From Escherichia coli (GTDB lineage: Bacteria > Pseudomonadota > Gammaproteobacteria > Enterobacterales > Enterobacteriaceae), in assembly GCF_050920415.1 (NCBI RefSeq), contig NZ_CP169309.1: 64,000 nt of DNA. The stretch is one strand, 5' to 3'. The notes below the pieces were generated by a model, which did no database searches, was not told the DNA's origin, and saw only the letters and a program-made list of their open reading frames with translations. Shown here one piece after another: positions 32,657 through 34,764 of the stretch (its first letter is position 1; each line of letters begins with the position of its first letter). Both the position numbers and the translations under genes were made by a program.

Positions 32657-33775
32657 ATGAAATACGATCTCATCATTATTGGCAGCGGTTCCGTAGGCGC
32701 TGCCGCCGGGTATTATGCAACCCGTGCCGGTTTAAACGTGCTAATGACCGACGCCCATATGCCACCGCATCAACACGGCAGCCACCACGGCGATACGCGA
32801 TTAATTCGCCATGCTTATGGTGAAGGCGAAAAGTATGTCCCGCTGGTCCTCCGCGCGCAAACGCTGTGGGATGAACTCTCCCGCCACAACGAAGAAGATC
32901 CCATTTTTGTACGCTCTGGCGTCATTAACCTTGGCCCGGCTGATTCCACATTTCTCGCCAACGTCGCCCACAGCGCCGAACAGTGGCAACTCAACGTTGA
33001 AAAGCTCGATGCGCAAGGGATTATGGCCCGCTGGCCGGAAATACGCGTCCCGGACAACTACATCGGCTTATTTGAGACTGATTCCGGCTTTTTACGCAGC
33101 GAACTGGCGATTAAAACCTGGATCCAACTGGCGAAGGAAGCGGGTTGTGCGCAGTTGTTCAACTGCCCGGTCACCGCAATTCGTCATGACGATGATGGCG
33201 TAACTATTGAAACCGCTGACGGTGAGTATCAGGCGAAAAAAGCGATCGTCTGCGCGGGAACATGGGTAAAAGATCTGCTCCCGGAACTGCCTGTCCAGCC
33301 CGTACGCAAAGTATTTGCCTGGTATCAGGCCGATGGTCGCTATAGCGTGAAGAATAAATTCCCGGCGTTTACCGGTGAACTGCTCAATGGCGATCAATAT
33401 TATGGTTTTCCGGCAGAAAACGACGCGTTGAAGATTGGCAAACATAACGGAGGCCAGGTTATCCATTCAGCGGATGAACGTGTTCCGTTTGCGGAAGTGG
33501 CCAGTGATGGGTCAGAAGCCTTCCCGTTCTTGCGCAATGTATTGCCGGGTATCGGTTGCTGCCTGTACGGCGCTGCCTGCACCTATGATAATTCGCCTGA
33601 CGAAGATTTTATTATCGATACTCTACCCGGCCACGATAATACACTGCTCATTACCGGCCTGAGCGGGCACGGTTTTAAATTTGCGTCAGTTTTAGGGGAA
33701 ATAGCTGCCGATTTTGCGCAAGACAAAAAAAGCGATTTTGATTTGACGCCATTCAGGCTTTCCCGCTTCCAATAA
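32657..33775 (+). CDS. solA: N-methyl-L-tryptophan oxidase
   Basis: 372-aa ORF with FAD-binding GSGSVG motif. Confidence 0.96.
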
Positions 33776-33783
33776 TCATCATT

Positions 33784-33809
33784 ACGGCCTCCAGAATGAG
33801 GCCGTTTTT
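33784..33809 (+). terminator. solA intrinsic terminator
   Basis: cggcctc-cagaatg-aggccg hairpin followed by TTTTT. Confidence 0.7.
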
Positions 33810-33936
33810 ACAGGAGTATTTAATGCGTCGGCTGTTGCACTATCTCATCAATAATATTCGCGAGCATCTGATGCTTTATCTTTTTCTCTGGGGTCTGTTG
33901 GCAATTATGGACCTGATCTACGTGTTTTATTTTTAG
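33796..33936 (+). CDS. yceO: Small membrane protein YceO
   Basis: 46-aa reading from ATG 33796 ([46 protein letters not shown]); this start lies inside the solA terminator, and ATG 33823 with an AGGAG Shine-Dalgarno (37 aa) is an alternative. Confidence 0.6.
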
Positions 33937-34197
33937 TTTTTCCGCACTGACATAAACTGACAAATATTTAATCTCCCTTTCATTTAGCGTGAAAAATTGA
34001 ATGAGATTCTTCCTGCCTCTACAGCACTCACCAGACCTTCCAGATGCTGAACCCACTAAACTTATGAAGATTCTTTCATTATTAATTCAAAATTATTGAA
34101 ATAAAAATAAATATCATTCAATTTGTTATTTTTGTGTTGCAATTCATTCTCCGACACGCCATTTTCTTTCTCTCGCAAATTCGTTTTGGATGCACTT

Positions 34198-34764
34198 ATG
34201 TCATTCACAAATACCCCTGAACGCTATGGTGTTATATCTGCGGCCTTACATTGGCTAAGCGCAATTATTGTCTATGGCATGTTTGCTTTAGGTCTGTGGA
34301 TGGTCACGCTCAGCTATTACGATGGCTGGTACCACAAAGCACCCGAATTGCATAAAAGCATCGGCATTTTGTTAATGATGGGGCTGGTTATTCGCGTTCT
34401 TTGGCGCTTCATATCTCCACCGCCGGGTCCGCTGCAAAGTTATTCGCCCATGACTCGTGTTGGCGCAAAGGCAGGACATCTTGCATTGTACCTATTGCTG
34501 TTCGCCATCGGCATCAGCGGCTATCTGATCTCCACTGCCGATGGTAAACCGATCAGCGTTTTTGGCTGGTTTGACGTCCCCGCGACCCTCGCCGACGCTG
34601 GCGCACAGGCTGACTTTGCCGGTGCCCTGCATTTTTGGCTCGCGTGGAGCGTCGTAGTACTGTCCGTTATGCACGGATTTATGGCCCTGAAGCATCATTT
34701 CATCGATAAAGACGACACTCTGAAGCGCATGCTGGGAAAGTCGTCATCTGACTATGGAGTATAA
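34198..34764 (+). CDS. yceJ: Cytochrome b561 family protein YceJ
   Basis: ORF 34123..34764; start chosen at MSFTNTPERYGVISAALHW (188 aa). Confidence 0.9.
   Translation: MSFTNTPERYGVISAALHWLSAIIVYGMFALGLWMVTLSYYDGWYHKAPELHKSIGILLMMGLVIRVLWRFISPPPGPLQSYSPMTRVGAKAGHLALYLLLFAIGISGYLISTADGKPISVFGWFDVPATLADAGAQADFAGALHFWLAWSVVVLSVMHGFMALKHHFIDKDDTLKRMLGKSSSDYGV

Follow-up and report, generated by a model that had tools for sequence, protein, structure and literature searches.

Conservation and sequence context favor the 37-residue over the 46-residue form of the small protein YceO in Escherichia coli

The window analyzed here is a stretch of 64,000 nucleotides from Escherichia coli (NCBI RefSeq assembly GCF_050920415.1, contig NZ_CP169309.1), in which the genes bssS-solA-yceO-yceJ-yceI follow each other in this order, all on the + strand. 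The region around the yceO start is 100% identical to E. coli chromosomes, and 5,414 of the 5,426 complete genomes of this species contain a 401-nt solA-yceO query at 95% identity or more. Of the 5,421 matches to this segment of the chromosome, five stand in plasmid-labelled records, which may represent mis-assigned replicons or plasmid-borne chromosomal segments. The features of interest at the locus are the following.

32657 to 33775, + strand: coding sequence of solA (N-methyl-L-tryptophan oxidase) with its stop TAA at 33773-33775, taken from the ORF list and from annotated E. coli records in RefSeq with the same or nearly the same sequence
33784 to 33805, + strand: GC-rich hairpin, a putative intrinsic terminator of solA, recognized by fold energy and covariation
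33796 to 33798, + strand: upstream in-frame ATG, start of the 46-aa annotation of K-12 and UniProt, straddling the junction between loop and 3' arm and probably non-functional as a start
33796 to 33822, + strand: nine-codon extension of the 46-aa form (MRPFLQEYL), which carries the 3' hairpin arm, the T-tract and the Shine-Dalgarno (SD) sequence in frame
33805 to 33809, + strand: T-tract TTTTT, seen in the sequence directly after the stem (TTTT if 33805 is counted in the stem)
33812 to 33816, + strand: SD sequence AGGAG, with an anti-SD duplex of -6.9 kcal/mol and purine-rich SD-like motifs at the same place in most relatives
33823 to 33825, + strand: downstream start ATG, preceded by AGGAG and conserved
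33823 to 33936, + strand: coding sequence of yceO in its short form, 37 aa plus a TAG stop, from the PGAP coding sequence of RefSeq genomes that maps to the same coordinates, Pfam PF10968 and the comparison of loci

Both readings of yceO share the stop TAG at 33934-33936, giving 46 aa from ATG 33796 and 37 aa from ATG 33823. In the curated MG1655 record, yceO (b1058, NP_415576.1) has 141 nt and 46 aa, and the UniProt entry YCEO_ECOLI also has 46 aa. The PGAP-annotated RefSeq genomes of E. coli, K-12 DH10B included, carry a 114-nt coding sequence that maps exactly to 33823-33936 and is named either 'YceO family protein' (WP_001253418.1) or 'DUF2770 family protein'; the ORF from ATG 33823 is 100% identical to WP_001253418.1 (37 aa) as annotated in these genomes. 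Sequences of both lengths are abundant in public collections, those of 37 aa under the title 'MULTISPECIES: YceO family protein [Enterobacteriaceae]' and those of 46 aa under YCEO_ECOLI. The start ambiguity is real, yet one major annotation authority, RefSeq/PGAP, has already settled on the short form. The 37-aa boundary is already known from RefSeq/PGAP and Pfam, and the case is an ordinary annotation discrepancy with nothing conceptually new in it.

The protein matches the Pfam family DUF2770 (PF10968) with 79.1 bits against a cut-off of 25 (E 2.4e-22), and positions 1-36 of the 36-position profile align to residues 10-45 of the 46-aa form, that is, from the methionine encoded by ATG 33823 onwards. 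Compared with the YceO/DUF2770 family (PF10968, WP_001253418.1) the short form displays no difference, the whole profile being matched, whereas the 46-aa version of K-12 and UniProt has nine extra N-terminal residues that fall outside the profile. A search of NCBIfam with the 46-aa query gave no match at E<=1; the RefSeq name 'YceO family protein' probably derives from a type of evidence other than an NCBIfam HMM, and the Pfam membership is unaffected. A reading made earlier from the sequence alone (hereafter the sequence-only reading) had described the product of ATG 33823 as a hydrophobic peptide of 37 aa. The length is right, and the hydrophobicity is that of the C-terminal half, which, judging from its residues, looks membrane-spanning.

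For comparison, solA loci were sampled with one genome per species, which yielded 53 non-redundant loci, the window and 52 loci that each represent a species, drawn from over 15 genera of enterobacteria, among them Escherichia, Citrobacter, Salmonella, Kluyvera, Kosakonia, Leclercia, Yokenella, Pseudocitrobacter, Pluralibacter and Siccibacter. All 53 loci analyzed contain a YceO-like ORF at a distance of 40-131 nt past the solA stop. The codon aligned to ATG 33823 is ATG in 47 of them, GTG in five and ATA in one, and the ORF that begins at this conserved start has 37 aa in 45 loci, 38 aa in six and 39 aa in one, which together make 52 of the 53. The consensus of the protein starts with MRRlf.yL and ends with LWsLLAimD.iYi.ff, and the mean pairwise divergence of the core ORF at the three codon positions (0.288/0.093/0.509) is a clear protein-coding signature.

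Several loci of this sample deserve a separate mention (L numbers are those of our comparison). The sole exception in length, Salmonella enterica subsp. arizonae CCUG 6322T (L030, 3660-3770), has an internal stop between MLYVIL and SIL and is probably a pseudogene. Citrobacter sp. wls619 (L025, 1322) has ATA at the conserved start and TTG one codon upstream. The GTG start occurs in L009, L026-L028 and L040, and in L026-L028 codon 2 is Leu (CTT), replacing the conserved Arg. No YceO-like match downstream of solA was found at E<=1e-5 in Enterobacter sp. BIGb0383 (L036) and Shimwellia pseudoproteus (L053), and therefore yceO is not universal beside solA. A 492-nt contig from an assembly of Terrisporobacter petrolearius (L059, NZ_JAHZMO010000143.1) codes for part of a SolA that shares 98% identity with that of E. 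coli (at a low coverage of 0.75), almost certainly an E. coli contamination in a Firmicutes assembly.

The 27 nt upstream of the conserved start diverge by 0.68/0.66/0.67 at the three codon positions. Within Escherichia, where the alignment is base for base, the extension shows no codon periodicity (0.143/0.095/0.127), the core diverging by 0.063/0/0.19. An ATG nine codons upstream is present only in four Escherichia loci and one Kluyvera of the 53, the copy in Kluyvera lying in the hairpin loop, apparently by coincidence; in three further Escherichia (E. whittamii, L006 and L038) the position of ATG 33796 is occupied by TTG. In addition, 18 of the 53 loci have a stop in frame somewhere in the nine codons before the start, and the distance between T-tract and start varies among clades (13, 15, 18 or 19 nt), not in multiples of three. 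The Citrobacter freundii group also has an in-frame ATG or GTG at the junction of loop and 3' arm (at -11 codons), and a short extension is open in several of its species.

Within E. coli, polymorphism is too scarce to discriminate between the starts, strain S87 apart. A 61-nt region is identical in 4,998 of 5,413 genomes, ATG 33796 and its open frame being nearly invariant, which fits constraint on the hairpin and the SD equally well as use of the long frame. In strain S87 (L061, NZ_CM151376.1, 177-206) the TTA directly before ATG 33823 is changed to TAA, which destroys the long frame without affecting the 37-aa ORF. The same strain also carries a change of AGGAG to AGGGG and of T to C in the T-tract. 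The codons of the extension coincide with elements of another kind: M-R-P-F-L is made up of the end of the loop, the 3' arm and the T-tract, and Q-E of the SD, so that the invariance of the extension in E. coli can be ascribed to these constraints on the nucleotides. The in-frame open stretch upstream of ATG 33823 has 27 codons, in which about 1.3 ATG, GTG or TTG are expected at random, and for this reason an upstream in-frame start is not surprising. The best explanation for ATG 33796 is an Escherichia-specific coincidence, chosen by the longest-ORF convention.

The two candidate starts differ in the signals that surround them. AGGAG does stand upstream of ATG 33823, as the sequence-only reading had it, with six intervening bases (TATTTA), the spacing of 7 nt given there being the difference between coordinates. 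This start displays the features of canonical SD-led initiation, namely an SD at a spacing of 5-9 nt, conservation and low structure. Opening it costs 8.8-13.9 kcal/mol in silico in a 200-nt context, which is not negligible. The region from -17 to +48 is no better folded than its shuffles, with a z of +1.3 in the window and values mostly above 0 in essentially all species, and an initiation region predicted to be unstructured is as expected of a genuine start. A conserved helix sequestering the SD was considered and rejected: in the E. coli minimum free energy structure GAGUAUU (33814-33820) pairs with AAUAUUC (33853-33859), a weak pairing (z about -2 to +1.3) that other species do not share. 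ATG 33796 lacks the features of SD-led initiation, being preceded by a weak duplex, embedded in a hairpin and present as ATG in 5 of 53 loci. Within the 20 nt that precede it, no anti-SD duplex is better than -1.7 kcal/mol, which bears out the earlier statement that this codon has no SD, and opening a ribosome-sized window there costs about 16 kcal/mol, positions -12 to -5 belonging to the paired 5' arm. Its placement in the terminator loop is accurate for two of its three bases: A and T are the last two of the loop, and the 3' arm opens with G, which has a pairing probability of about 0.99.

The hairpin consists of a 5' arm ACGGCCTC (33784-33791), a 6-nt loop CAGAAT (33792-33797) and a 3' arm GAGGCCGT (33798-33805), and its stem of 8 bp comprises seven G/C-rich pairs and a closing A-U pair, six of the pairs being G-C. 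As RNA it folds with -14.5 kcal/mol against -4.2 +/- 2.0 for shuffled sequences (z -5.07; 0 of 200 shuffles as stable). In 52 distinct aligned sequences 90.2% of the cells are paired and 6 of the 8 pairs show double-sided changes (41 cells), with compensatory exchanges such as U-A for C-G at the penultimate pair and C-G for U-A at the base of the hairpin. The observed score was reached by 0 of 500 shuffles, and controls with slid partners pair at 60% at most. RNAalifold on a MAFFT alignment recovered 3 of the 8 pairs, owing to the placement of gaps, and the explicit pair count is more informative here. Nearly all relatives have the solA stop close to the hairpin, at about 4-10 nt. The T-tract is less uniform: in the 8 nt after the stem at least five T are found in 28 of 52 loci (Escherichia, Citrobacter) and three or fewer in 15, the tract being degenerate in other genera. 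Since in many genera the hairpin is kept where the T-tract is not, its conserved role may be broader than termination on the + strand alone.

In the window, a GC-rich stem-loop followed by TTTTT, with its base 8 nt past the solA stop TAA, has the sequence pattern of an intrinsic terminator, and in its 8-bp stem, 6-nt loop and U5 it resembles the intrinsic terminators found between co-oriented genes with read-through. It also resembles them in that the SD of the downstream gene, yceO, begins 3 nt past the U-tract, so that transcription of this gene requires either read-through or a promoter located before the hairpin. It differs from them in the conservation of the hairpin without a U-tract in many genera and in the Term-seq data, which place no 3' end here. 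The Term-seq supplements of Adams et al. 2021 (PMC7815308) list neither a 3' end at MG1655 11192xx-11194xx nor yceO by name, perhaps because its expression is too low, and the TERMITe supplements gave no 3' end at the solA-yceO hairpin. A simple consensus scan for terminators did not list the hairpin at 33784-33805, probably because the A-T extension of the stem leaves four T in the tail window. A search of both strands of 33300-34400 against Rfam gave no family at E<=1. Adams et al. 2021 (PMC7815308) do report, in their supplementary data, a Rho-termination region inside solA, at MG1655 1120419 (- strand), which corresponds to about position 32824 of the window, some 170 nt into the ORF. This suggests that solA transcription is largely aborted in LB, which would limit read-through into yceO still more.

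Between the T-tract and ATG 33823 there are 13 nt, too few for a promoter, and the yceO mRNA would therefore begin upstream of or at the hairpin, which would in that case sit in the leader of the yceO transcript. As a candidate sigma-70 promoter in the 3' end of solA, AATAAT (33771-33776) looks by eye like a good -10, but the sole TTGACG (33743-33748) lies 22 nt away and is unconvincing; a sigma-70 consensus scan of the + strand in 33300-34300 returned no match. If termination at the hairpin is efficient, as the 8-bp GC stem and U5 suggest, yceO would depend on read-through, and this dependence may explain the very low level of YceO. In fact, chromosomal YceO-SPA is reported as detectable by immunoblot at a level at least 10,000-fold below expression from pBAD (PMC12529367), which read-through-dependent expression would fit. 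The efficiency of termination, and hence the read-through into yceO, may in turn depend on the translation of solA.

The published work on YceO bears on the start in a limited way. In a 2025 study in MCP (PMC12529367) an 11-residue peptide sought by targeted MS was detected only when the 46-aa ORF was supplied on a pBAD24 construct, and thus has no bearing on the native start. YceO is also among the proteins that this study found by top-down MS, in a text that does not state the proteoform. YceO is also cited as an acid-stress small protein (PMC12997748, PMC8765455). In the accessible parts of Weaver et al. 2019 (bioRxiv 10.1101/511675), Meydan et al. 2019 (10.1101/520783), Saito et al. 2020 (PMC7043885) and a riboproteogenomic study of Salmonella (PMC11005335), we found no initiation-profiling table that includes yceO.

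Taken together, we consider the 37-aa form from ATG 33823 to be the native functional product of yceO, with a probability of roughly 0.88. The preference of the sequence-only reading for the shorter form is upheld by a start conserved in 52 of 53 loci, by the upstream stops in 18 of 53 loci and in strain S87, by a coding pattern confined to the core, by a covarying hairpin, a T-tract and an SD that explain the bases of the extension, by the energetics of the SD, and by the boundary common to Pfam and PGAP. We propose that yceO encodes a 37-aa small protein of the DUF2770 family whose translation would be initiated at ATG 33823, directed by AGGAG across a 6-nt gap. The 27 nt before this codon would be non-coding, composed of the 3' arm of the conserved hairpin, the T-tract and the SD of yceO, and the gene would be expressed from transcripts that read through the terminator-like hairpin.

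Three other readings of the locus have to be set against this one. The 46-aa annotation could be correct in E. coli, with initiation at ATG 33796 and the nine-residue extension as an Escherichia-specific gain; it is in use by the curated K-12 annotation and by UniProt, its frame is open and nearly invariant in E. coli, and the 46-aa ORF expressed from a plasmid yields a stable, detectable product (PMC12529367). Nevertheless, we regard it as very unlikely, given a start with no SD (-1.7 kcal/mol) whose G, together with the whole region from -12 to -5, is paired in a hairpin of -14.5 kcal/mol, its replacement by TTG in E. whittamii and the divergent Escherichia genomes L006 and L038 and, the apparently coincidental Kluyvera copy apart, its absence in other genera, the in-frame TAA before ATG 33823 in E. 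coli S87, and an extension that lacks coding periodicity and owes its conservation to the hairpin, the T-tract and the SD. That yceO is not a gene at all, merely a chance open frame downstream of solA, might be thought from the very short ORF, the very low native level and the native peptides, which went undetected by PRM (PMC12529367). The conservation of length and sequence across more than 15 genera, a divergence biased to the third position, a DUF2770 match of 79.1 bits against a cut-off of 25 and the chromosomal YceO-SPA seen by immunoblot (PMC12529367) speak against it, and the conservation pattern and the detection of the tagged protein effectively refute this possibility, to which we assign next to no weight.

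Somewhat different is the possibility that both starts are used, the 37-aa form by SD-led initiation and a minor 46-aa form by re-initiation at ATG 33796 after the ribosome terminating on solA has melted the 5' arm. The solA stop lies 21 nt upstream of ATG 33796 and 8 nt from the base of the hairpin. With the usual footprint, a ribosome terminating at this stop would intrude into the 5' arm. Moreover, most E. coli keep ATG 33796 open and in frame, and the short stop-to-hairpin distance of about 4-10 nt is kept in nearly all relatives. We hold this double use to be unlikely: the argument for it is purely inferential, ATG 33796 is not conserved, so that any long form would be dispensable, and solA seems to be poorly expressed or prematurely terminated in LB, as indicated by the Rho-termination region at 1120419 (Adams et al. 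2021, PMC7815308). A more elaborate and quite improbable version, which we mention as speculation, is that the hairpin couples three processes in E. coli and the species closest to it: the ribosome terminating on solA would partly melt the terminator, allow read-through into yceO and expose ATG 33796 for occasional re-initiation, so that a lineage-specific 46-aa proteoform would arise only when solA is actively translated, beside the conserved 37-aa form.

With the 37-aa form as the preferred product, the 46-aa annotation resembles the over-extension to the longest ORF that is known from early annotations. An in-frame ATG without SD, situated in the regulatory element of the preceding gene, was preferred to a conserved and SD-preceded start, and the shorter form is backed by comparative genomics and profile boundaries. 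The present case differs from others of this kind in that the MG1655 record has stayed unrevised and recent experimental work (PMC12529367) still uses the 46 aa. The consequence is mainly practical: experiments built on the long form, such as targeted-MS peptide assays and plasmids with the 46-aa ORF (PMC12529367), may target or make a protein that native cells probably lack, and functional studies of YceO conducted under the K-12 annotation would benefit from the correct N-terminus.

Some further observations concern the surroundings of yceO. In Pseudocitrobacter, Kluyvera ascorbata and Siccibacter (L043, L044, L046, L052) additional palindromic insertions, REP-like in appearance and strongly folding, widen the solA-yceO spacer to 78-131 nt, and the hairpin proximal to yceO is retained. 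Antisense to yceO and the spacer downstream of it, the mechanical ORF list contains a GTG-initiated ORF of 78 aa (window 33820-34056, - strand). The sole sigma-70-like match in 33300-34300 is also on the minus strand, at 34092-34121 (TTGAAT-18-AATAAT) in the AT-rich yceO-yceJ spacer; it points back to yceO and is at chance level by a shuffle control. In Kluyvera and relatives (L042, L044, L047, L049, L051, L056-L058), just past the solA stop at the equivalent of window 33776-33810, an A-tract (6-8 A of 9) precedes the hairpin and no T-tract follows. Read on the minus strand, this hairpin resembles a strong intrinsic terminator, with no annotated gene converging there, and it could reflect an antisense transcript across yceO or the remnant of a bidirectional terminator.
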